Shown: in pieces, positions 1 to 11,451 of the stretch
How the letters are laid out: the number at the start of each line of letters is the position of its first letter
How positions within the stretch are numbered: the stretch's first letter is position 1
Assembly (NCBI GenBank): GCA_025363535.1
Contig: JANYDP010000269.1
Span: 1 to 12,127, forward strand
DNA length: 12,127 nt
From: Verrucomicrobiota bacterium
GTDB taxonomy: Bacteria > Verrucomicrobiota > Verrucomicrobiia > Limisphaerales > CAIQOK01
Direction: 5' to 3'
Position numbers and translations under genes: made by a program
Notes under the pieces: generated by a model
What the model saw: only the letters and a program-made list of their open reading frames with translations
Database searches by the model: none
Told to the model about the DNA's origin: nothing

Positions 1-1121
1 TTGTGCATGAGCGGTTGCGTGCAGTGATGCCCGCCGCGCAACGCCACGCCGCCTTGATCGGCCAGCGTCACCACGTCGTGCGCGTGGACGTCCTTGAGCA
101 GAAAGCTCACAAGCCCGGCGCGTCCGGTCTTCGGGCCGAAAAGGCGGATGTCCTTGAGCGCCGCCAGTTGGTCATAGGCGTAGTTCGCCAGTTCCTGATC
201 GTGCTGCCAGATGTTTTCGCGGCCGATGGCGTCGAGATAATCCATCGCGGCGTGCAAACCAATCGGGCCGGAGATGTCCGGCGTGCCGGCCTCGAACCGA
301 TGCGGCGCTTTCTTGAACTCGGTCTTGTGGTAGCCAACGGACAAAATCATTTCACCGCCGCCTTGATACGGCGGCATGGCGTCGAGCACTTCCGGCCGTC
401 CCCACAGCACGCCGATGCCGGTCGGCCCGCAAATCTTGTGTCCGGAAAACGCGAAGAAATCGCAGCCGAGCGCTTGCACATCTATCGGCATGTGACCTGC
501 GCTTTGCGCGCCATCCACAAGCGTGGTGATGCCGAGCTTGCGGGCGCGGGCGCAGAGTTCGGCGACGGGATTGACGGTGCCCATGGCATTCGAGATGTGA
601 ACCATCGCGAACATCTTCACCTGCTTGGTGAGCAGCGAATCGAGCGTGGACAAATCCAGAACGCCGTCGTCGCCGGTGACGGGGACGTAGGCGAGTTTTG
701 CGCCGGCACGCTGCGCGATCAACTGCCACGAAACGATGTTGCTGTGGTGTTCGACTTCGGTGAGCAGGATGACGTCGCCGGGCTTGAGGTTCGCCGCGCC
801 CCAAGCTGCCGCAACGAGGTTGATGCCTTCGGTGGTGCCGCGCGTGAAGATGATTTCGTCGGCGCTCTTGGCGTTGATGAACTTGGCGGCGCGCGTCCGG
901 GCAGCTTCAAAGGCGTTGGTGGAGCGGTTGCTCAACTCGTGGATGCCGCGATGGACGTTGGCGTTGTCGTGCTCGTAGTAATGGACGAGGGCGTCAATCA
1001 CCGCACGCGGCTTCTGCGACGTGGCGGCGTTGTCGAAATAGATCAGCGGCTTGCCGTGAACCTGCTGGTTGAGGATCGGAAAGTCGGCGCGCAGCCTCGC
1101 CCAATCAATGCTGTTCTTCAT
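1..1121 (-). CDS. sufS: Cysteine desulfurase SufS (group II aminotransferase class V). Start is ATG at 1121; the C-terminus is cut off by the left window edge.
   Basis: Manual translation of the minus strand from 1121 gives MKNSIDWARLRADFPILNQQVHGKPLIYFDNAATSQKPRAVIDALVHYYEHDNANVHRGIHELS...SGHKICGPTGIGVLWGRPEVLDAMPPYQGGGEMI...RFEAGTPDISGPIGL...RGGHHCTQPLM. The PLP-lysine motif SGHK and the active-site region RxGHHC are present, and the whole sequence aligns with E. coli SufS. The reading frame stays open to position 1, which is why it is absent from the supplied ORF track. Confidence 0.9.
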   Translation of the reverse strand, partial: MKNSIDWARLRADFPILNQQVHGKPLIYFDNAATSQKPRAVIDALVHYYEHDNANVHRGIHELSNRSTNAFEAARTRAAKFINAKSADEIIFTRGTTEGINLVAAAWGAANLKPGDVILLTEVEHHSNIVSWQLIAQRAGAKLAYVPVTGDDGVLDLSTLDSLLTKQVKMFAMVHISNAMGTVNPVAELCARARKLGITTLVDGAQSAGHMPIDVQALGCDFFAFSGHKICGPTGIGVLWGRPEVLDAMPPYQGGGEMILSVGYHKTEFKKAPHRFEAGTPDISGPIGLHAAMDYLDAIGRENIWQHDQELANYAYDQLAALKDIRLFGPKTGRAGLVSFLLKDVHAHDVVTLADQGGVALRGGHHCTQPLMH

Positions 1122-1786: not shown

Positions 1787-2242
1787 TTAATTTTTCTCGG
1801 ACTCGGTGGTCACGGACTGGTCTTCGCCTTTGATTGCAGCGATGAGCGCGTGCCACGACAAAATTGCACATTTCACCCGCGCCGGATAGCGGTAAACGCC
1901 CGCGAACACGGCCAGCTTGCCGACATCCCCGACGATCTTGCCGGTCATGATCATCTCGTGAACCTGGTCAAAGATCGCCTGGACTTCCGCCTTGGTTTTG
2001 CCTTTGACCGCATCGGTCAGCAGGGAGGCGGACGCCTTGGAGATGCAGCAGCCGGACCCAACGAAGCTGGCGTCCTGGATCACGTCGCCGTCGAGCGCGA
2101 GAAACAATTTGAGGTTGTCGCCGCACAGCGGGTTGTGACCCTGGGCCGTGCGCGTGGCCTGCGCCATCTCGTGAAAGTTGCGCGGCTTCTTGCAGTGGTC
2201 CAGGATGACCTGCTGGTAAAGGTCGTTGATGTCGTCGAACAT
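1787..2242 (-). CDS. sufU: SUF-system NifU/IscU-family Fe-S cluster scaffold / sulfur acceptor (SufU-type), 151 aa.
   Basis: ATG at 2242. The protein MFDDINDLYQQVILDHCKKPRNFHEM...HNPLCGDNLKLF...GSGCCISKASASLLT...VKCAILSWHALIAA carries the conserved Cys ligands (CGD, GCxIS, C-terminal Cys) of the SufU/IscU fold. It sits between sufD and sufT. Confidence 0.85.
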   Translation of the reverse strand: MFDDINDLYQQVILDHCKKPRNFHEMAQATRTAQGHNPLCGDNLKLFLALDGDVIQDASFVGSGCCISKASASLLTDAVKGKTKAEVQAIFDQVHEMIMTGKIVGDVGKLAVFAGVYRYPARVKCAILSWHALIAAIKGEDQSVTTESEKN

Positions 2243-2299: not shown

Positions 2300-3625
2300 T
2301 TACTTTCCTGCCAAGTGCGGATTTGCTTCGAGACGATCCCACACCAGCTTGTCCAGTCCCTCGCGGGCTGGTGCGCACTTGATGCGCTCAATGATCTCGC
2401 CGGCAAAGGCGTGGATGAGCATCCGCCGCGCGTTGTCCCGACCGATGCCCCGGGTGCGCAGATAAAAAATGGACTCGTCGTTCAGCTGACCGATGGTCGC
2501 GCCGTGCGTGCATTTCACGTCGTCGGCGTAAATTTCCAATTGCGGTTTCGTGTCGGCGGTGGCGTCGTCGGACAGCAAAAGATTTTTGTTCGTCTGCTTC
2601 GCGTCGGTTTTCTGCGCGATGGGATGCACGTAGATGCGCCCGTGAAAAACGCCCTTTGATTTGTCGTCGAGGATGCCGTTGAAATACTCGTGGCTGGCGC
2701 AATGCGGCTGCGCGTGCTCGACGATCATGTGATGGTCGGCGAGCTGTTCGTCCTTGGTGATGTAAAGGCCGTTCAGCACGCATTCCAAACCTTCGCCCGC
2801 AAGTTTGGTGCGGATGTTGGTGCGGGACAATTTCGCCCCGAGCGCGAAGGAGTGGATGTTCACGTTGCTGGCGCGGCCGAACTCGCCGGAGATCGTCGCC
2901 ATGTGAAACGCGGCGGCGGTTTCATCCTGCAACTTGACGTGTTCGACGTAGGCACTGTCGCCGGCGACGAGTTCCGTGACGGCGTTGGTGAGGTACGCCG
3001 CGCTGCCCGTGCTGAGGTAGCTTTCGATCACCGTGACGCGGCTGTTCGCCTCGGCGATGATGAGGTTGCGTGGATGGATCGCCGCGCCGGATTGCTTCGC
3101 GGACGACAGATAAATCAATTGCACCGGTTCTTCTACTGCGACTCCAGCGGGGACGAAAATGAACGCGCCGTCGGTGAAAAATGCCTGGTTCAACGCGGCG
3201 AAAGCGTTGTCCTTGGTCACGGCGTACTGGCCAAGATGCTTTTCGATCAGCGCGGAATCCTCGGTGAGCGCGGTCGCGAGGTTTTTTATTTTAACGCCAC
3301 CGGCTGCGGGCCTGGTCACGGAAAGTTTGGCCGAGAAAAAGCCATCCACGAAAACGAGCCGACTGCCGGACATGCCGGCAAGGATCGCCGCGCTCAAGGC
3401 CTGGGTTTCCGCGCCGTTCACCACGGTGGCCTGCGCAGGCTGGAACGGCATCTTCGCGATGGGCGCAATGTTGGTAAAGCGCCAGTCCTCGTGTTGCAAC
3501 GTGGGAAAACCCTGCGCGGTGAAACTGGCCAGGCCGGCCGAGCGCAGCGGCACGAGCCAGGCCGGCGACCCGGAGGGATTGGCCAACTGCTCAAATTTGG
3601 TCTGAAATGAATCGGTATTGTTCAT
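2300..3625 (-). CDS. sufD: Fe-S cluster assembly protein SufD (SufB/SufD family), 441 aa.
   Basis: ATG at 3625 gives MNNTDSFQTKFEQ... The C-terminal signature ...KPQLEIYADDVKCTHGATIGQLNDESIFYLRTRGIGRDNARRMLIHAFAGEI is characteristic of the SufBD family. The length (~440 aa) and the lack of an N-terminal Cys-rich SufB region favour SufD. The alternative upstream track start at 3670 adds 15 codons without support. Confidence 0.75.
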   Translation of the reverse strand: MNNTDSFQTKFEQLANPSGSPAWLVPLRSAGLASFTAQGFPTLQHEDWRFTNIAPIAKMPFQPAQATVVNGAETQALSAAILAGMSGSRLVFVDGFFSAKLSVTRPAAGGVKIKNLATALTEDSALIEKHLGQYAVTKDNAFAALNQAFFTDGAFIFVPAGVAVEEPVQLIYLSSAKQSGAAIHPRNLIIAEANSRVTVIESYLSTGSAAYLTNAVTELVAGDSAYVEHVKLQDETAAAFHMATISGEFGRASNVNIHSFALGAKLSRTNIRTKLAGEGLECVLNGLYITKDEQLADHHMIVEHAQPHCASHEYFNGILDDKSKGVFHGRIYVHPIAQKTDAKQTNKNLLLSDDATADTKPQLEIYADDVKCTHGATIGQLNDESIFYLRTRGIGRDNARRMLIHAFAGEIIERIKCAPAREGLDKLVWDRLEANPHLAGK

Positions 3626-3645
3626 GAAATGACGCGAGGCTTGCC

Positions 3646-3689
3646 CGCCAACGAACGGGCATTGTCCCACGCGCAGCCCGTTGGCGCAA
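3646..3689 (-). promoter_or_regulatory. Imperfect inverted repeat overlapping a putative sigma70-type promoter (TTGCGC-N17-GACAAT on the minus strand) in the sufD leader. Candidate operator for an Fe-S or iron-responsive regulator.
   Basis: Arms CGCCAACGAACGGGC (3646-3660) and GCCCGTTGGCG (3676-3686) are reverse complements with a 2-nt bulge. On the minus strand the -35 TTGCGC maps to 3684-3689 and the -10 GACAAT to 3661-3666, with a 17-nt spacer. The sufD ATG at 3625 lies ~35 nt downstream. Confidence 0.35.
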
Positions 3690-3805
3690 GTCCGCCGTGG
3701 GTGTGATTTAGAGGGGCGAAGCCATTGGTTCGTCTTAAGACCGGGGCCAACAAGTTAACCGCTTGGATTTTTGCGCTAAGGAAATGGTTTTCATTCCCTT
3801 TTCGT

Positions 3806-4060
3806 TTATTCCGCCGCCTTTGCTCTGAATGCTTTGCAGGTTCGGCACCAGCGCGCCTGGCCGAACGTGGCCCAGACGAGCAGATAAATTCCCGTGAGCG
3901 CGAGAATGATGCCCGGCACCCAGAACCCCGGAAAGACAAACGCCATCGCCACCGAAGCCGACATGCAAAGGCCGACGATGCTCAACCTAGCTCTGCTCTT
4001 TTGAATCATCTCGCCGCCGCACGATGGGCAGGAGAACTGCTTTTCAGCGGCTTTAGCCAT
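3806..4060 (-). CDS. Small (84 aa) membrane protein. It has an N-terminal CxxC pair, two predicted TM helices and a C-terminal CxxC pair (a split zinc ribbon around a TM hairpin). It is 7 nt downstream of the Mrr gene.
   Basis: ATG at 4060 gives MAKAAEKQFSCPSCGGEMIQKSRARLSIVGLCMSASVAMAFVFPGFWVPGIILALTGIYLLVWATFGQARWCRTCKAFRAKAAE. The hydrophobic segments and cysteine pairs are non-random. The upstream 16 codons of the track ORF would overlap the Mrr stop. Confidence 0.45.
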   Translation of the reverse strand: MAKAAEKQFSCPSCGGEMIQKSRARLSIVGLCMSASVAMAFVFPGFWVPGIILALTGIYLLVWATFGQARWCRTCKAFRAKAAE

Positions 4061-4067
4061 GTCTGAG

Positions 4068-4985
4068 TTATTCGACGCCAGCTTCTGTGGCAAAATAGTC
4101 TGAATCAATCCGCTTCACTTCGTAGGCAGCTTGTGGAGTAACGCCGATGTTGAAATCAATCATGAAGTCCGCAAGTTTTTCGCCATCAATCAGAACGATT
4201 TTGCTTTCGATTCTGGACGCGTAGTTCACCGCGTCTTTGGAAAAATCAGAAGTCGTTATGAAAATGCCTTTCCTGGCCCGCTGTCCCTGCAATGCTCCCG
4301 CGAACTTCTGAATTTCGGGGCGACCGACCGTCGCCTGCCAGCGTTTTGCTTGGATGTAAATGATGTCCAAACCCAGGCGGTCTTCTTTAATGATTCCGTC
4401 AATTCCTTCGTCGCCGCTTTGCCCGATGGCCTCTCCTGCATCTTTGAGCGAACCGCCGTAACCCATTTTCACGAGCAAATCCACGACGACACGCTCGAAG
4501 AACGATGGAGAGCATTTCTTTACCTGCGCGAGAATGTCTCTCGCAAGTGTTTTGCGGAGATTTTCGTACGCTGATTCGAGAGCTTCTTCAGGAGTTTGGC
4601 TTTCATCCTCGTTTGATGTTGGAGATTCTTCCGCTTCCTTTTTCTTGCTGCGCCATTCGACATAGTCAGGAAACGAACGCAGAAATTTCAGGTTGATTTT
4701 TGGTGGTTTCTTTTCAAGAATCTCGCGACCTCGTTGAGTAATTCCGAAAACTCCTCGGGCACGGTTTTCCAAAAGCCCAGCCATGCGCATGTGAACCCTT
4801 GCCCACGCGACGCGATTAGCCAGAACCCTCTGCTGTCCGCTTGGCAGTAGCTGCTTGCGCTCCTGCTCGGTCAGTTTGAAACGCGTTGCAATATTTTCGA
4901 TTGCTTCAGAGTTGTCGTGATCAATTCCATCGCCCGTAAATTCCAAAAGCGGCAGCATAATGGATTGAAAATCTGGAATTGGCAT
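4068..4985 (-). CDS. mrr: Mrr-family type IV restriction endonuclease (Mrr_N winged-helix domain plus Mrr catalytic domain), 305 aa.
   Basis: The N-terminal region MPIPDFQSIMLPLLEFTGDG...LTEQERKQLLPSGQQRVLANRVAWARVHMRMAGLL is Mrr_N-like. The C-terminal region CSPSFFERVVVDLLVKMGYGG...GDEGIDGII...DIIYIQAKRWQATVGRPEIQKF...GIFITTSDFSKDA matches the Mrr_cat PD-(D/E)xK core (D...EGIDG...QAKR). GC is ~45-48%, below the ~62% of the flanks. Confidence 0.85.
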   Translation of the reverse strand: MPIPDFQSIMLPLLEFTGDGIDHDNSEAIENIATRFKLTEQERKQLLPSGQQRVLANRVAWARVHMRMAGLLENRARGVFGITQRGREILEKKPPKINLKFLRSFPDYVEWRSKKKEAEESPTSNEDESQTPEEALESAYENLRKTLARDILAQVKKCSPSFFERVVVDLLVKMGYGGSLKDAGEAIGQSGDEGIDGIIKEDRLGLDIIYIQAKRWQATVGRPEIQKFAGALQGQRARKGIFITTSDFSKDAVNYASRIESKIVLIDGEKLADFMIDFNIGVTPQAAYEVKRIDSDYFATEAGVE

Positions 4986-4998
4986 AACTCTTTTCCAA

Positions 4999-6075
4999 TT
5001 AGCTTTTCAAAAACTCATCTAACGCCGCCTTGGTCACGCGCCAGGTCGAGCCAATCTTTTTGCCTTTGAGATCGCCTTTTTCCAGCGTGGCCAAAACGTC
5101 GGCTTCGCTCACGCCAAGGACGCGCGCCACGTCGGCAGAGCCGAGCAGTTCAATGGCACCACCGGCAATCACCGGCGGCACGCCACCTGCCGGCGCGGCG
5201 GACGGCGTGGCTTGCGGTTGATTCATCGAGGCCATCAGTTGCTGGCCCATCGCGAGGCCCGCGCCGAGTCCCGCACCGGTACCGGCCATTCCACCGGCTG
5301 CGCCGCCTTCTTTGGTCAGCGATTCGGCCATCTGGAATTTCACGTAGTCGTTGAGATTGCCAACGGCAGCCATGCTCGAACGCTTGTCAATCGCGGCCTC
5401 GACTTCGGGCGGCAGCGAGACATTTTCGACAATGAAGCTCGGAATCTCGATGCCGTATTTGGCGGTGACCTGCGGGTTGATGGCCGGCAGCAAGGCTTCG
5501 CCAAGTTCCTGATAGCGCGCGGCGATGTCGAGCACCGGCACTTTGGAGGACGCCAGCGCCTCGGTGAACACGCTGACGATGCGCGAGCGCATGGTGTCGG
5601 CGAATTCGTCGAGCCGGAAATGATCGTCCGTGCCGGCGACTTCCTTCAAAAAGGTTTTCACGTCCACGACCTTGAAATCAAACGTGCCGAAGGCCCGGGC
5701 GCGGACGATGCCGAAATCGGCGTCGCGCATCATGATCGGGTTGGACGTGCCCCATTTGTTGCCGGTGAAGAGGCGCGTGTTGACGTAGTAGAGGTCGGCC
5801 TTGAACGGCGAGTGCAGGCCGTATTTCCAGCCTTTGAGCGTGGAGAGGATCGGGATGTTGTCGGTGGTCAGCGTGTGTTTGCCCGGGCTGAAGGTGTCGC
5901 CAAACTGGCCGAGATACACGAACTGCGCGGTCTGCGATTCGCGGACGATGAGCTGCGCGCCGTTTTTGATTTCCTTGTCCTGGTCGGGATAGCGGAAGGA
6001 GATGGTGTCGCGGGAATCGTCCTGCCACTCGATGATTTCGAGGAACTGTGTTTTGAGATAATCCATGAGGCCCAT
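4999..6075 (-). CDS. SPFH/Band-7 domain protein (Band_7_1 / YdjI-like, 'virion core protein'-type) fused through a Gly/Ala-rich linker to a C-terminal excisionase-family (MerR-like) helix-turn-helix, 358 aa.
   Basis: ATG at 6075 gives MGLMDYLKTQFLEIIEWQDDSRDTISFRYPDQDKEIKNGAQLIVRESQTAQFVYLGQFGDTF...IEIPSFIVENVSLPPEVEAAIDKRSSMAAVGNLNDYVKFQMAE, which is an SPFH fold. A low-complexity GAAGGMAGTGAGLGAGLAMG linker follows. The C-terminus LLGSADVARVLGVSEADVLATLEKGDLKGKKIGSTWRVTKAALDEFL matches the HTH_17/excisionase DNA-binding consensus. The 91 upstream codons of the track ORF overlap the divergent gene and are discounted. Confidence 0.8.
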   Translation of the reverse strand: MGLMDYLKTQFLEIIEWQDDSRDTISFRYPDQDKEIKNGAQLIVRESQTAQFVYLGQFGDTFSPGKHTLTTDNIPILSTLKGWKYGLHSPFKADLYYVNTRLFTGNKWGTSNPIMMRDADFGIVRARAFGTFDFKVVDVKTFLKEVAGTDDHFRLDEFADTMRSRIVSVFTEALASSKVPVLDIAARYQELGEALLPAINPQVTAKYGIEIPSFIVENVSLPPEVEAAIDKRSSMAAVGNLNDYVKFQMAESLTKEGGAAGGMAGTGAGLGAGLAMGQQLMASMNQPQATPSAAPAGGVPPVIAGGAIELLGSADVARVLGVSEADVLATLEKGDLKGKKIGSTWRVTKAALDEFLKS

Positions 6076-6226
6076 AATTTTTTCTTTCGGTTTGGTTTTA
6101 ACGGTTGCCTGTTTTGTTGGCGGTATCATCGGGCGGGCGGCGCGGTCTGTGAAGTACAAATTAACGCGGGGAGTGTAACGGGAATGCGCTTGCGAATTGT
6201 CCGGGAAAAGGAAGAATGACGCCACC

Positions 6227-6982
6227 ATGTCAGCGGAAGCCCTCAACTGCCCGATGTGCGGCACACCGGTCGCCAGCCTTGATGCCACCGGGTGCGACCA
6301 TTGCGGCGCGCGACTGGCGACGGTGGCGTGTCCTTCGTGCTTCGGCATGATTTTTCAGGGCGCGAAGTTTTGTTCGCATTGCGGCGCGAAGGTGGAGCGA
6401 ACGGAGTTGGAGGACGCGACCAAGGCTTCCTGCCCGCACTGCCAACTCAGCCTTGAGGCGGTTACCGTCGGCAGCACCCGACTCAGCGAGTGTCCGAAGT
6501 GCGAAGGAATCTGGATGGACAACGCCTTGTTCAACGAGATTTGCGCCAACCGCGAAGAGCCGTCCGCCGTGCTGGGCATGGCTTTTTCGTTGCCACAACA
6601 TGAAGTGGGCTCGCTGGATTTGAAAGTGCGCTATTATCCGTGCCCAACCTGCAGTGCGCTGATGAACCGGGTGAATTTCGCGCATTGCTCGGGCGTGATC
6701 GTGGACGTCTGCCGCGACCACGGAACCTGGTTTGACAAGGATGAGTTGCGGCGGATCGTGGAATTTATTCGCAACGGCGGACTGGACAGGGCGCGGGCGA
6801 TGGAAATCGAGGAATTGAAGCGGCAACAGCAACAGCTCAAGTCCGCCCAAACCACCAGCGCGATGGAACCCGCTGCGGACTGGCACCACACCGTCGGCTG
6901 GCCCGGAACGAATCGCGATCTGGTGGGTGTGGGAGTTTCGGCCGCAGTGAATGCCCTGTTTGATCTTTTCAATCGACGCTGA
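6227..6982 (+). CDS. Multi-zinc-ribbon protein, 251 aa. It has four N-terminal CxxC pairs, then two TFIIB-type zinc ribbons (zf-TFIIB-like), then a short Gln-rich helical tail.
   Basis: The ATG at 6227 is preceded by AAAAGGAAG (6206-6214). The N-terminus MSAEALNCPMCGTPVASLDATGCDHCGARLATVACPSCFGMIFQGAKFCSHCGAKV carries the four CxxC pairs. Two modules follow: CPHCQLSLEAV...CPKCEGIWMDNALFNEI, and CPTCSALMNRVNFAHCSGVIVDVCRDHGTWFDKDELRRIVEF. The CxxC...(I/V)D.C..C.G.W.D..EL pattern is the zf-TFIIB hallmark. The track ORF starts earlier at a TTG (6197). Confidence 0.75.
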   Translation: MSAEALNCPMCGTPVASLDATGCDHCGARLATVACPSCFGMIFQGAKFCSHCGAKVERTELEDATKASCPHCQLSLEAVTVGSTRLSECPKCEGIWMDNALFNEICANREEPSAVLGMAFSLPQHEVGSLDLKVRYYPCPTCSALMNRVNFAHCSGVIVDVCRDHGTWFDKDELRRIVEFIRNGGLDRARAMEIEELKRQQQQLKSAQTTSAMEPAADWHHTVGWPGTNRDLVGVGVSAAVNALFDLFNRR

Positions 6983-6994
6983 TGCCGCGCCGGT

Positions 6995-7990
6995 TCATTT
7001 TTGAATCACCGCCTCGCCCGTCACCACATCCAGCGTCCACGGCTTCGGTTCAGGCAGCGCAAGTTTTCCGTCGCCGATTTCCAACGGCATCCAGAGATAG
7101 CGCGAATCCCATTGTGTTGCGGGTTTCCAGATGTCGCCCATGAAAATCACCGTGGTCGCTTTGGTGCCGACCACTTTGACCATCATCGTGGATTGCGCGC
7201 CAAAGGTGTTTTTTTCCGGCGGCGCGATGTCCTTGAACTCCGACCACGGGCCTTCGAGTGATTTTGCGGTAGCGTATTTGTTCGGGTTGGCATTCCAGCC
7301 GGTCAACGCCGAGCCGATGGCGTAATAAAGCCCTTGGTAATGCACGACCGCACCACCTTCCATGTGCATCGGTATGAGACACATTTCTTTTTCAACATCG
7401 AGATAATCATCGGACAACTTCACGATGCGGAAACCAAACGGACGGTCCTCAAAAATCAAATACGCCGTGCCGTCGTCGTCCACGAACTGCCCGATGTCGC
7501 GGCTTTCGTGGCCGAGCGGACGGAAGCTTTTCACCCATTGATAATCACCGTCCACCGTGTCGCTCACCGCCACGCCGACGCGGGCGAGTTTATAACCCTC
7601 ATCGTCCACATGCATGTACATCACGAACTTTTTTGTCTTCGCGTTGTAGAAAACTTTGGGCCGCTCAAGAATCCAGCCTGCATGGAAATGTTCGGGATCG
7701 TACACTTTGAGGGCATGTTTACGGAACGTCCATTGCGCGAGATTCGTCGAGGAATAGCAACTGACGTAGCGGTAGGTGGGATTCAATCCGCGTGAACGTT
7801 CCTCGCCAAACCAATAATACGTGTCGCCAACTTTGAGGATGCCGCCGCCGTGCGCCTGTATGTGTTGGCCGCGATCATCGGGCCAGAGTTCGCCGGGCTG
7901 GATGAGCTGGGGCACCGCGCCCGCGTTGAGGAGAAGCAATGAAAACAGTGCGCCGAAAATCTGGGATGTCCGCAAGGCGCTTGATTGCAT
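6995..7990 (-). CDS. Secreted glycoside hydrolase, GH43-like five-bladed beta-propeller, with an N-terminal signal peptide, 331 aa.
   Basis: ATG at 7990 gives MQSSALRTSQIFGALFSLLLLNAGAVPQ, a signal peptide. The mature part (WPDDRGQHIQAHGGGILKVGDTYYWFGEE...YRYVSCYSSTNLAQW...VDDDGTAYLIFED...) resembles GH43/GH117-type propeller hydrolases, with a catalytic Asp near the N-terminus and repeated D/E-containing blades. The family call is motif-based only. Confidence 0.6.
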   Translation of the reverse strand: MQSSALRTSQIFGALFSLLLLNAGAVPQLIQPGELWPDDRGQHIQAHGGGILKVGDTYYWFGEERSRGLNPTYRYVSCYSSTNLAQWTFRKHALKVYDPEHFHAGWILERPKVFYNAKTKKFVMYMHVDDEGYKLARVGVAVSDTVDGDYQWVKSFRPLGHESRDIGQFVDDDGTAYLIFEDRPFGFRIVKLSDDYLDVEKEMCLIPMHMEGGAVVHYQGLYYAIGSALTGWNANPNKYATAKSLEGPWSEFKDIAPPEKNTFGAQSTMMVKVVGTKATTVIFMGDIWKPATQWDSRYLWMPLEIGDGKLALPEPKPWTLDVVTGEAVIQK

Positions 7991-8083
7991 GGTGCCAGCA
8001 TTTTCTGGCAACCCCGGCAACCGTCAAGTTTTGTTCCGGTCAACTGGATCTTCCTGTCCGCATTATTACGGGGGGAAAAGCGG

Positions 8084-10177: not shown

Positions 10178-11353
10178 TCAGCGAAAGCAAATGGTCCGCA
10201 CGCAGTCGTGGAAATCTTCCGCCCCGTTGACGATCTTGATTTCCACCCGCATGAAATAAAACGGCAGATCGCGGCGATCCAGTTTGGGAAACCGCACGGC
10301 GTCCTTCTGCGTGGTGATGATGATCTCGGCCTGGCGCTTCTTGCCGCGATTGATGGCGTTGAGGATTTCCTGCTGCGTAAACCGGTGATGGTCGGCGAAG
10401 CGCTTGGAATAAACCAGCTCCGCGCCGAGCTTGACCAGGCCCGACTCAAAACTTTCCGGCTGCGCAATGCCGCTCAACGACGCAACTCGGCGGCCTTTGA
10501 TGATGCCGATGGCGTGGCGCTGGCCGGTGAAAACATCCTCCAGATAAAGCGGGTGATGCACGCACTCGATGATGCCCGCCGTGGGATTCAAGGTCGCGAT
10601 GCGCCGCCGGAGTTCGGCCGTATTGCCATCGCTCTTGGTGATGAAGATGACGCTGGCGCGGGCCAGATGCGACGGGGGTTCGCGCAAGGTGCCGCGCGGC
10701 AGCAGCGACTCGTTGCCGAACGGTTGCTGCCGGTCAATCAGCACCACGTCCTGCCGGCGGCCCCGCAGCTTCCAGTATTGAAAACCGTCGTCGAGCAGCA
10801 GCGTGTCGCAACCGAATTGTTCAATCGCATAACGGCCCGCCTTCACGCGATCCTTGTCCACCAGCACGACCACATCCTTGAGATTGGACGCGAGCATGTA
10901 CGGCTCGTCGCCGGCAGTTTCGGAATCGAGCAGCAGGGATTTGCCATCAGAGACCACGCGCGGCGGCGTCGTGTCGGCGCGGAACAGCAGGCGGTCGAGC
11001 AACGTCTTGTGGAGCGGCGGCGGCTTGGATCGGTAGCCGCGCGAGAGGATGGCGACGTTGCGGCCCTGGTCGCGAAGTTCGCGGGCGAATTTTTCCACGA
11101 CCGGCGTCTTGCCGGTGCCGCCGACGGTGAGGTTGCCGATGGCGATGACCTGTACGCCGAGCGTGGTGTCGCGGAGGATGCGGACGTTGTAGAGAAACCG
11201 GCGGGCCTTGACGGCGACCAAAAGAAAAACCTTCGAGAGGACGTACAGCACGCCCCGGATGAGCGACGCGCCGGTGCCGCGCCGTTCCTCCATGACCACC
11301 TCGATAAAAAAAGTCTCGACGCTTTCCGTCCAAAGCCGCCACGTTTCGCGCAT
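10178..11353 (-). CDS. lpxK: Tetraacyldisaccharide 4'-kinase LpxK (lipid A biosynthesis), 391 aa from ATG 11353. The start is ambiguous.
   Basis: The P-loop region [18 protein letters not shown]...AILSRGY aligns with E. coli LpxK (VVVVGNLTAGGNGKTPVV...VVSRGY). The C-terminal [10 protein letters not shown]...[11 protein letters not shown] matches the LpxK tail (MTEKDAVK...WYLPVDAQL). ATG 11293 (MEERRG...) would give a length closer to E. coli. The track start at 11389 is a TTG. Confidence 0.8.
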
Positions 11354-11451
11354 TGACCGAAGTCTGCCAAGCCCGCACGAACGGAGCAAGCGCCAGTCAA
11401 CCGCTGCCGATTGTTTTTGTGTTCCACGCCGTTCGTGGTTATGAATTTTTC

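Follow-up and report, generated by a model that had tools for sequence, protein, structure and literature searches.

Gene Content Around mrr

Contig JANYDP010000269.1 of the Verrucomicrobiota assembly GCA_025363535.1, analysed here over its entire length of 12,127 nucleotides (nt; hereafter the window), carries a gene of low guanine-plus-cytosine (GC) content, mrr, whose product is a predicted restriction endonuclease and which lies on the minus strand downstream of a gene of the SPFH family and upstream of a suf operon. The nearest relatives of the window genes were found in metagenome-assembled genomes of Verrucomicrobiota labelled as Limisphaerales, Verrucomicrobiia or subdivision 3. Read along the minus strand, the genes come in the order SPFH-HTH, mrr, a small open reading frame (ORF) of 84 amino acids (aa), sufD, sufU, long SufT and the 5' part of sufS. 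Since two independent Logan assemblies (L084 and L085; L numbers designate the loci and contigs compared) reproduce the layout SPFH-mrr-small ORF-sufD at 100% identity, this layout is not an assembly chimera. The features surrounding mrr are as follows:

6125..6153, minus strand: sigma-70-like promoter match upstream of SPFH (consensus scan, 9/12 matches)
4999..6075, minus strand: SPFH (Band_7_1) gene with a C-terminal HTH_17 domain, 358 aa (Pfam Band_7_1, 2.9e-85; HTH_17, 9.3e-08)
4986..4998, minus strand: spacer of 13 nt between SPFH stop and mrr start, TTGGAAAAGAGTT, 31% GC (sequence reading)
4068..4985, minus strand: mrr, 305 aa, predicted solitary Type IV restriction endonuclease gene (Pfam, PADLOC, EcoKMrr alignment)
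4061..4067, minus strand: spacer of 7 nt between mrr stop and small ORF start (sequence reading)
3806..4060, minus strand: small ORF, 84 aa, CxxC...CxxC and two hydrophobic segments (ORF reading)
3778..3800, minus strand: short hairpin AAGGGAATG-AAAAC-CATTTCCTT, just past the small ORF (regex scan, fold)
3626..3728, minus strand: native sufD upstream region, promoter/leader (alignment with relatives)
2300..3625, minus strand: sufD, first gene of the sufD-sufU-sufT-sufS operon (TIGR01981, 3.5e-87, above cut-off)

Assignment of the mrr Product

The mrr product matched Mrr_N (PF14338; 6e-29) over residues 6-91 (profile positions 1-86 of 87), Mrr_cat (PF04471, a PD-(D/E)XK-type nuclease domain; 3.2e-38) over residues 156-275 (profile positions 2-115 of 115), and mREase_IV, the PADLOC model of Type IV methyl-directed restriction endonucleases, over residues 1-300 (1.5e-89). 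When compared by BLASTP with EcoKMrr of E. coli K-12 (from NC_000913), it was aligned over the full length (residues 1-298 versus 1-303) with 36% identity (E 1e-57). The nuclease motifs of Mrr have been described as (F)E for motif I, D-x-G-x-D for motif II and Q-x-K for motif III, with a downstream Glu proposed to substitute for a missing carboxylate (PMC2790908). All of these residues are kept in the window protein, in which E164, D192, D196, Q212, K214 and E224 correspond to E172, D199, D203, Q219, K221 and E231 of EcoKMrr, the D203A variant being the catalytic mutant of the latter (PMC5435990). A sequence search of the PDB with Mrr gave no match at E ≤ 0.001, and no NCBIfam model matched it. 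An exact look-up of the 305-aa sequence gave no hit. The start codon, ATG at 4985, is backed by the 305-aa homologues P0002-P0004 and by the alignment with EcoKMrr from residue 1; a public gene call of 296 aa (P0001) begins at Met10, nine codons later.

No cognate methyltransferase domain lies beside mrr, and the window ORFs scanned showed no domain of a methyltransferase, an integrase or a transposase, the negatives for methyltransferases, integrases and tRNAs covering the 12-kb contig. By every feature that can be tested in sequence, the mrr product is thus predicted to be an intact solitary Type IV restriction endonuclease of the Mrr family, as the initial annotation of this DNA had proposed in describing a complete Mrr-family modification-dependent endonuclease; the dependence of cleavage on modification is predicted by homology.

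EcoKMrr (b4351), the prototype solitary Type IV enzyme, is like the window Mrr in length (304 versus 305 aa), in the two-domain layout, in the identical residues of motifs I, II and III with the downstream Glu, and in having no adjacent methyltransferase. It has also been described as laterally acquired in E. coli (PMC3152355). The two proteins share only 36% identity. For EcoKMrr, regulation through tetramer-to-dimer activation has been reported (PMC5435990). Their settings differ as well: the E. coli gene adjoins hsdR and hsdM in the hsd/mcr 'immigration control' cluster, while the window gene forms part of an SPFH operon-like unit.

Composition of the GC-Poor Patch

A low-GC island reaching from about 3690 to 5030 within flanks of about 62-65% GC had originally been described for this DNA. 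There is indeed a real GC-poor patch at this place, but it is narrower than proposed and 3690 lies too far to the left: a two-state scan identified 4033-5022 as the maximum-likelihood low-GC segment (48.3% versus 59.7%; log-likelihood ratio 20.7), and the measured flanks have about 59-60% GC. From composition alone, the left edge could lie anywhere in 3697-4096. The GC content of mrr is 49.1%, compared with a mean of 59.1% (standard deviation 2.3, windows of 918 nt) for the remaining contig, in which the lowest 918-nt window not overlapping mrr has 53.4%.

The GC deficit of mrr resides almost wholly at third codon positions. Its GC at first, second and third positions (GC1, GC2 and GC3) is 0.58, 0.38 and 0.51, respectively, whereas the GC3 of ten neighbouring genes is 0.67-0.83 at an overall GC of 58-62%. 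With GC1 and GC2 in the normal range, the deficit is not due to amino-acid composition. Codon usage is likewise atypical for the genome, with a Karlin distance to the other genes of 0.494 for mrr and of 0.20-0.38 for native genes of similar size, in line with the foreign codon usage anticipated for this gene. The pooled intergenic GC in the window is 0.54. The region at 3806-4060, which had been taken as part of the AT-rich spacers around mrr, proved to be the 84-aa ORF, with a host-like composition (58.5% GC, GC3 0.72). In essence, the GC dip spans 4068-4998 (49% GC), which comprises mrr and the 13-nt spacer before its start.

A Variable Slot Behind the SPFH Gene

SPFH homologues of 66-85% aa identity were collected from species-representative genomes, one per GTDB species, which gave 80 loci of 21 kb. 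None of the 80 carried mrr at the SPFH locus, and none had sufD, sufU or sufT within 10 kb of SPFH. The conserved downstream partner of SPFH is a gene that we designated ZnR375, whose product of about 375 aa has a CPxCG zinc ribbon at its start and a hydrophobic end segment, read by eye as a transmembrane helix, and matched no Pfam or NCBIfam model. ZnR375 was present in 68 loci, and in 36 of these 68 (Verrucomicrobiota, Acidobacteriota and Betaproteobacteria) its distance to SPFH was below 200 nt, frequently with an overlap of the two genes. The ancestral arrangement is thus the ZnR375 gene directly after SPFH.

In close Verrucomicrobiota, the gap between SPFH and ZnR375 often holds an additional 0.4-2 kb, with a GC content 3-11 points below that of the flanks. 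The cargo of this slot is diverse: a PDDEXK_3/GxxExxY gene in at least 12 loci (including L001, L002, L009, L010, L015, L017, L019, L021 and L033), an IS200-like Y1 transposase (identified by a scan of L005, L022 having a near-identical ORF), an N6_N4 DNA methylase (L056), a DUF3592 gene (L019 and L175-177), a PEMT/ICMT-like gene with orf64 and the small ORF (L003), and ORFs without a family (L006, L008, L016, L007, L173 and L174). All of it is on the SPFH strand.

The relatives closest by SPFH (L173-L177, 94-97% aa identity) have no mrr at the slot. In L173 (97%), SPFH is followed by a 239-aa ORF without a family (GC3 0.52) and a decayed 5' fragment of ZnR375; in L174 (96%), which shares the upstream GH43-zinc-ribbon-SPFH synteny of the window, by an ORF of about 120 aa without a family (GC3 0.46) and the small ORF; and in L175-L177 (94%), by DUF3592 (GC3 0.52), the small ORF, a hairpin, PDDEXK_3, a second hairpin, ZnR375 and recG. 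The cargo of these relatives starts 11-26 nt past the SPFH stop and has a GC3 of 0.46-0.55, compared with 0.73-0.81 for SPFH. As L173-L177 hold other cargo at this position, the window mrr is one among many genes that occupy this slot in place of one another. Its absence there and from this position in 80 of 80 representatives marks it as an accessory gene, and in this respect the original proposal holds.

The two terminal codons of SPFH vary along with the cargo: alleles linked to mrr end in GAAAA(G/A)C-TA(A/G) and the others in GAAGTCG-T(AG/GA), which places one crossover point inside the SPFH end. On the opposite side, homology picks up where the next gene begins, at its ATG and the codons for CPxCGGE.

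Hot spots for defence and accessory genes between conserved core genes are a known kind of site. The SPFH slot is like them in its fixed position, its conserved bounding genes, its alternative cargo (restriction enzyme, DNA methylase, nucleases, transposase), the GC-poor composition of the cargo measured and the lack of a dedicated mobility gene. It is unlike typical hot spots in being small (one to three genes), in lying inside an apparent operon, in having all cargo co-oriented and in its boundaries, which fall within the final codons of SPFH and within the initial ~17 codons of the gene that follows.

The tight coupling of the two genes might instead mean that SPFH-HTH and Mrr function together as a defence module of two genes. 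Such a module would fit the close spacing of the co-oriented genes, 11-13 nt in each of four lineages, as well as the weak match of the HTH_17 tail to PADLOC 'mad1' (9.1e-06). SPFH and ZnR375 occur without mrr, however, in more than 60 loci, unrelated genes stand at the same position in the closest relatives, and no SPFH gene was found near the Mrr homologues in any of 80 metagenome loci. We hence regard a dedicated module as very improbable.

The Small ORF and the Junctions of mrr

The small ORF is the right anchor of the variable slot, the conserved SPFH gene being the left one. Its aa identity is 68% to L003 and 72% to L175-177, with a range of 66-72% across relatives, and its hydrophobic segments were read by eye as transmembrane. 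Its N-terminus recurs in L174 straight after a different cargo gene, and over the first ~17 codons the ORF is similar to the 5' end of ZnR375 (N-terminus versus L012 ZnR375, E 2.6e-4); a match to TIGR04104 was weak and below the cut-off. The window has lost ZnR375 save for these ~17 codons, fused to the small ORF.

The distance of about 13 nt from the SPFH stop reported initially was reproduced exactly at 4986-4998. At 13 nt, the spacer of the SPFH/mrr junction is too short to contain a promoter or an attC-like site. No significant secondary structure was found across the mrr/small ORF junction (z = 0.07). A candidate hairpin over the SPFH stop and mrr start (z = -2.8) was dropped as probably fortuitous; on reading of the junctions, it seems to be absent in L081 and L083.

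The repeat search gave short matches at chance level, and no direct or inverted repeats bracket mrr; the check for short direct repeats at the ends of the proposed island thus came out negative. A tRNA/tmRNA scan and an Rfam scan of the whole window gave no matches. The initial statement that no integrase or transposase is visible therefore stands for the ORFs scanned and extends to tRNAs and terminal repeats. Set against the features of classical integrative islands, mrr shows an atypical composition and a patchy distribution, and lacks an integrase, a tRNA/tmRNA target and flanking direct repeats.

Hairpins in and Around the Slot

The hairpin at 3778-3800 occurs once in the window (regex scan) and forms a 9-bp stem in the DNA fold; the fold of its 66-nt context was not significant (z = -0.85). 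Its core, GGGAATG/CATTCC, is that of the long palindromes that flank the GxxExxY (PDDEXK_3) cassettes in relatives, and in L175 a long palindromic element of the same type follows the small ORF at the same place.

In those relatives, the GxxExxY/PDDEXK_3 gene is flanked by long imperfect palindromes built of GGCA(A/G)GGGAATG ... CATTCCC(T)TGCC units, on both sides in several loci (L001:11063-11161; L175:7046-7110 and 7940-8062; L002, L009, L010, L015, L017, L021, L033 and L081-L083). Within the 21-kb loci, these palindromes occur almost only in the SPFH-ZnR375 gap (DNA folds, z = -3.05 and -5.4). Together with the PDDEXK_3 gene they look like a mobile hairpin-bounded nuclease cassette. A literature search on GxxExxY returned nothing relevant.

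These elements raise the question of whether the slot is a site-specific cassette system, that is, an integron-like or hairpin-directed array that received mrr as a cassette without a promoter, through a recombinase or nuclease whose substrate is the GGGAATG...CATTCCC palindromes; the GxxExxY/PDDEXK_3 protein or the IS200-like Y1 transposase could be this enzyme. The cargo is all single-ORF, tightly packed and co-oriented, the long hairpins stand on both sides of PDDEXK_3 and almost only in the slot, a Y1 transposase is present in the slot of L005 with its near-identical counterpart in L022, and the short hairpin behind the small ORF of the window shares the core of the long ones. No such element, however, is found at mrr, with its spacers of 13 and 7 nt and its unstructured 3' junction; no integron integrase was found in the scan, which covered the window only; and co-orientation is explicable by selection against disrupting the operon of SPFH and its partner. 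The delivery of mrr by such a system is accordingly considered rather unlikely.

Integron arrays and clusters of attC sites lacking integron integrases (CALINs) are like the SPFH slot in their promoterless, single-ORF, co-oriented cargo behind a fixed upstream promoter and in the imperfect palindromes between some cassettes. The slot is unlike them in that no attC-like element lies beside mrr, that no IntI was found (scan of the window only) and that its palindromes bracket PDDEXK_3 only and are at most putative attC-like sites. At mrr itself, the next ORF begins after 7 nt, the junction is unstructured (structural check) and no integrase was found in the window.

A broader and more speculative reading, which we hold to be improbable, is that the few dozen bases after the SPFH-HTH stop in Limisphaerales-like Verrucomicrobiota are a dedicated one-orientation exchange site for promoterless single-gene cassettes, integron-like but without an integron integrase. 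Crossovers would then fall in the last SPFH codons and the CPxCGGE-coding start, and the hairpin-flanked GxxExxY nuclease or the Y1 transposase could drive or seed the exchange.

Age of the mrr Lineage in the Slot

Among 5.8 billion proteins, only three Mrr clusters were close to the window protein (89-90% aa identity), all others being at most 68% identical and distributed over many phyla. The contexts of two of the three were read, on three contigs (L081 and L082 from ENA, L083 from JGI). In each, mrr begins 11 nt past the SPFH stop and is followed by a decayed 5' piece of ZnR375, a hairpin element and PDDEXK_3; the 11-nt spacers are unrelated in sequence to the 13-nt spacer of the window. 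The mrr genes of L081-L083 have a GC3 of 0.49-0.50 and are only 37-47% identical to the window mrr at four-fold sites, while the four-fold-site identity of the adjacent SPFH to that of the window is 55-76%. By hand calculation from the four-fold counts with the F81 correction, these values correspond to about 0.9-1.4 substitutions per site for mrr and about 0.3-0.8 for SPFH. The mrr lineage has therefore long been resident in the slot of this clade, with synonymous sites near saturation and a GC3 of about 0.5 that shows no drift toward the host value. The recent acquisition read from the GC drop in the initial annotation does not agree with the same mrr lineage, joined at the same junction, in three further lineages.

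Mutation is biased toward AT, and GC-favouring selection or biased gene conversion acts on core genes. Considering that a GC3 of about 0.5 is found in four mrr lineages and in unrelated slot cargo alike, and that the intergenic GC is 0.54, the low GC3 of mrr fits an accessory gene near an AT-shifted equilibrium rather than freshly arrived DNA. Low GC does not date a recent arrival of mrr.

If so, mrr might not be foreign at all, and could be an old resident gene whose low GC3 comes from weak codon selection or low expression. The constancy of GC3 in all four lineages across deep synonymous divergence, an intergenic GC near the GC3 of the cargo, and the fact that no place other than the SPFH slot is known for the closest kin of this mrr lineage all speak for such an origin. 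The distribution of mrr is nevertheless patchy, since it is missing from the slot in L173-L177 and in the 80 representatives, where other genes or nothing stand in its place, and homologues of 56-68% identity across many phyla, with a GC that partly tracks the host, are the mark of a horizontally moving family. The tracking was seen in a metagenome scan of Mrr homologues of at most 67% identity: over 51 loci, mrr GC regressed on flank GC with a slope of 0.56; with flanks above 55% GC, mrr was the GC-poorer in most loci, by about 7 points on average, and in AT-rich hosts its GC was at or above that of the flanks. An old resident gene of this kind is thus judged unlikely.

The nucleotide identity of the window SPFH to those of L173, L174, L175 and L081 is 0.90, 0.89, 0.89 and 0.88, respectively, and the best match shifts along the gene, from L173 and L175 at the 5' end to L081 at ~150-375 and L174 at ~600-750. 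This mosaic suggests that the five lineages are about equidistant and may recombine within SPFH. For mrr, L081 and L083 form the closest pair; for the SPFH tail, compared over a shared segment of only ~95 codons that includes a low-complexity linker, the closest pair is the window and L081.

The Junction Between the SPFH Unit and suf

Seen from either side, SPFH is not beside suf in relatives, neither in the 80 SPFH loci nor around sufD. Relatives of sufD at 94, 90 and 88% aa identity lie in an operon sufD-sufU-(relB-like)-sufT-sufS with sufD first, and their upstream neighbours differ (a histidine kinase with a response regulator, hisD, DUF6941), none being SPFH or mrr. The ~75 nt upstream of sufD are near-invariant (window versus L166:6230-6302, L169:9925-10000 and L171:8410-8485), from ~3698 to the ATG, and similarity to L169 reaches back to ~3728. 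No Rfam family matched this region. The left edge of 3690 given for the island consequently falls within native sufD upstream DNA, 3626 to ~3728, which is kept in relatives without SPFH or mrr, and because those ~75 nt are kept, the joint between the small ORF and suf lies between 3806 and ~3728. Apart from the ~17 codons noted above, no trace of PDDEXK_3 or ZnR375 was found in the window. The hairpin at 3778-3800 is the likely site of the rearrangement that joined the SPFH-mrr-small ORF unit to suf.

According to the initial annotation, an island of about 1.3 kb (3690-5030) had recently been inserted, in this genome, between a previously adjacent SPFH gene and suf promoter. The discontinuity in GC and codon usage is real, the closest SPFH relatives are without mrr, and composition alone would allow a left edge near 3697. 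The synteny expected from such an insertion was, however, found in 0 of 80 SPFH loci and nowhere among the sufD relatives at 88-94%; mrr sits between SPFH and a small ORF carrying the 5' end of ZnR375; 3806-4060 is a host-like conserved ORF and 3626 to ~3728 native suf upstream DNA; and the same mrr and junction recur in three lineages with near-saturated synonymous sites. A single recent insertion is hence quite unlikely, and the SPFH/island/suf layout is the product of two separate events.

Three side observations concern the suf region. The block upstream of sufD contains a promoter-like TTGCGC-17 nt-GACAAT, whose -10 region is spanned by an inverted repeat, CCAACGGGC ... GCCCGTTCGTTGG; this repeat may serve as the operator of a repressor or form a hairpin in the leader. 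sufB and sufC are not adjacent to the suf cluster in the window or in L166-L171 and must lie elsewhere. In L166-L168, a RelB-like antitoxin gene stands between sufU and sufT.

Proposed Origin and Expression of mrr

From these results, the GC-poor patch is best read as a single promoterless cargo gene, mrr, held in a hypervariable slot just 3' of a conserved SPFH-HTH gene by ordinary accessory turnover, to which we assign a probability of roughly 0.7. mrr would have arrived or persisted via homologous recombination through the conserved flanks, namely the SPFH 3' end and the CPxCGGE-coding 5' end of the next gene, rather than by a self-mobile element; this route is favoured by the mosaic identity of SPFH, the co-variation of its terminal codons and the restriction of the known mrr lineage to the slot. 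The GC3 of about 0.5 would represent a weakly selected, AT-biased equilibrium shared by all slot cargo. A second, independent rearrangement at the hairpin after the small ORF probably removed PDDEXK_3 and ZnR375 and placed the sufD operon downstream.

The sole sigma-70-like promoter match in the scan lies upstream of SPFH (6153-6125, consensus match), and no terminator-like site on the minus strand was found between SPFH and the small ORF. mrr may accordingly be transcribed by read-through from the SPFH promoter, and its product would bind methylated foreign DNA via Mrr_N and cut it, as EcoKMrr does.

Several points weigh against this explanation. The synonymous divergence between the window and L081 is 2-3 times higher for mrr than for the adjacent SPFH (~0.9 versus 0.3, F81), which could mean separate acquisitions or older alleles, not co-inheritance. 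L082 and L083 contain SPFH fragments of only 96-128 codons, which limits the comparison of mrr and SPFH trees, and most of the relatives, which are metagenome contigs, are short. Neither an empty site nor a donor was found at near-identical sequence, the recombination route being inferred and not observed; co-transcription of SPFH, mrr and the small ORF is predicted from a consensus scan; and the activity and specificity of Mrr are predictions.

With the window, the accessory genome known for an uncultured Verrucomicrobiota lineage grows by one predicted Mrr-type restriction gene of the solitary kind. As to method, the GC dip rightly flagged a foreign gene, but it set the borders off by ~380 nt, hid a small native ORF and was uninformative about the time of arrival, whereas synteny resolved the layout into its two separate events. 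The finding on mrr represents the usual turnover of accessory genes, and no new type of element is involved. Only two aspects are mildly unusual, namely the variable slot that follows SPFH and the GxxExxY cassettes flanked by hairpins; recurrent, co-oriented turnover of single genes behind an SPFH-HTH/zinc-ribbon pair, with those cassettes beside the slot, is of modest interest.

Other Features of the Window

The remaining features assigned in the window are as follows:

6197..6982, plus strand: double-zinc-ribbon gene (DZR and Zn_ribbon_TFIIB), divergent from SPFH (Pfam)
10178-11389, minus strand: lpxK
1787-2242, minus strand: sufU
about 1212-1763/1871, minus strand: long SufT
1-1121, minus strand: 5' part of sufS

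The divergent double-zinc-ribbon gene also lies beside SPFH in L001, L003, L005, L007, L009, L015, L016, L019 and L174. With SPFH(Band_7_1)-HTH_17 and ZnR375, it makes up a conserved three-gene module in Verrucomicrobiota, Acidobacteriota and Betaproteobacteria. After lpxK, a RadC-like ORF (...HNHPSGDP...; 11,4xx-12,127, plus strand), called by eye from its translation, runs off the right end of the contig.

A second GC dip, at ~900-1350, is due to a near-perfect hairpin of ~65 nt (AACCGCAAAGAACACAAAGAACGCAGAGAT...ATCTCTGCGATCTTTGCGGTT) that fills the sufT-sufS spacer at ~1133-1197 on the minus strand. Located between the sufT stop at 1212 and the sufS start at 1121, this hairpin could be a repetitive extragenic palindromic (REP)-like element or an intra-operon attenuator or terminator.

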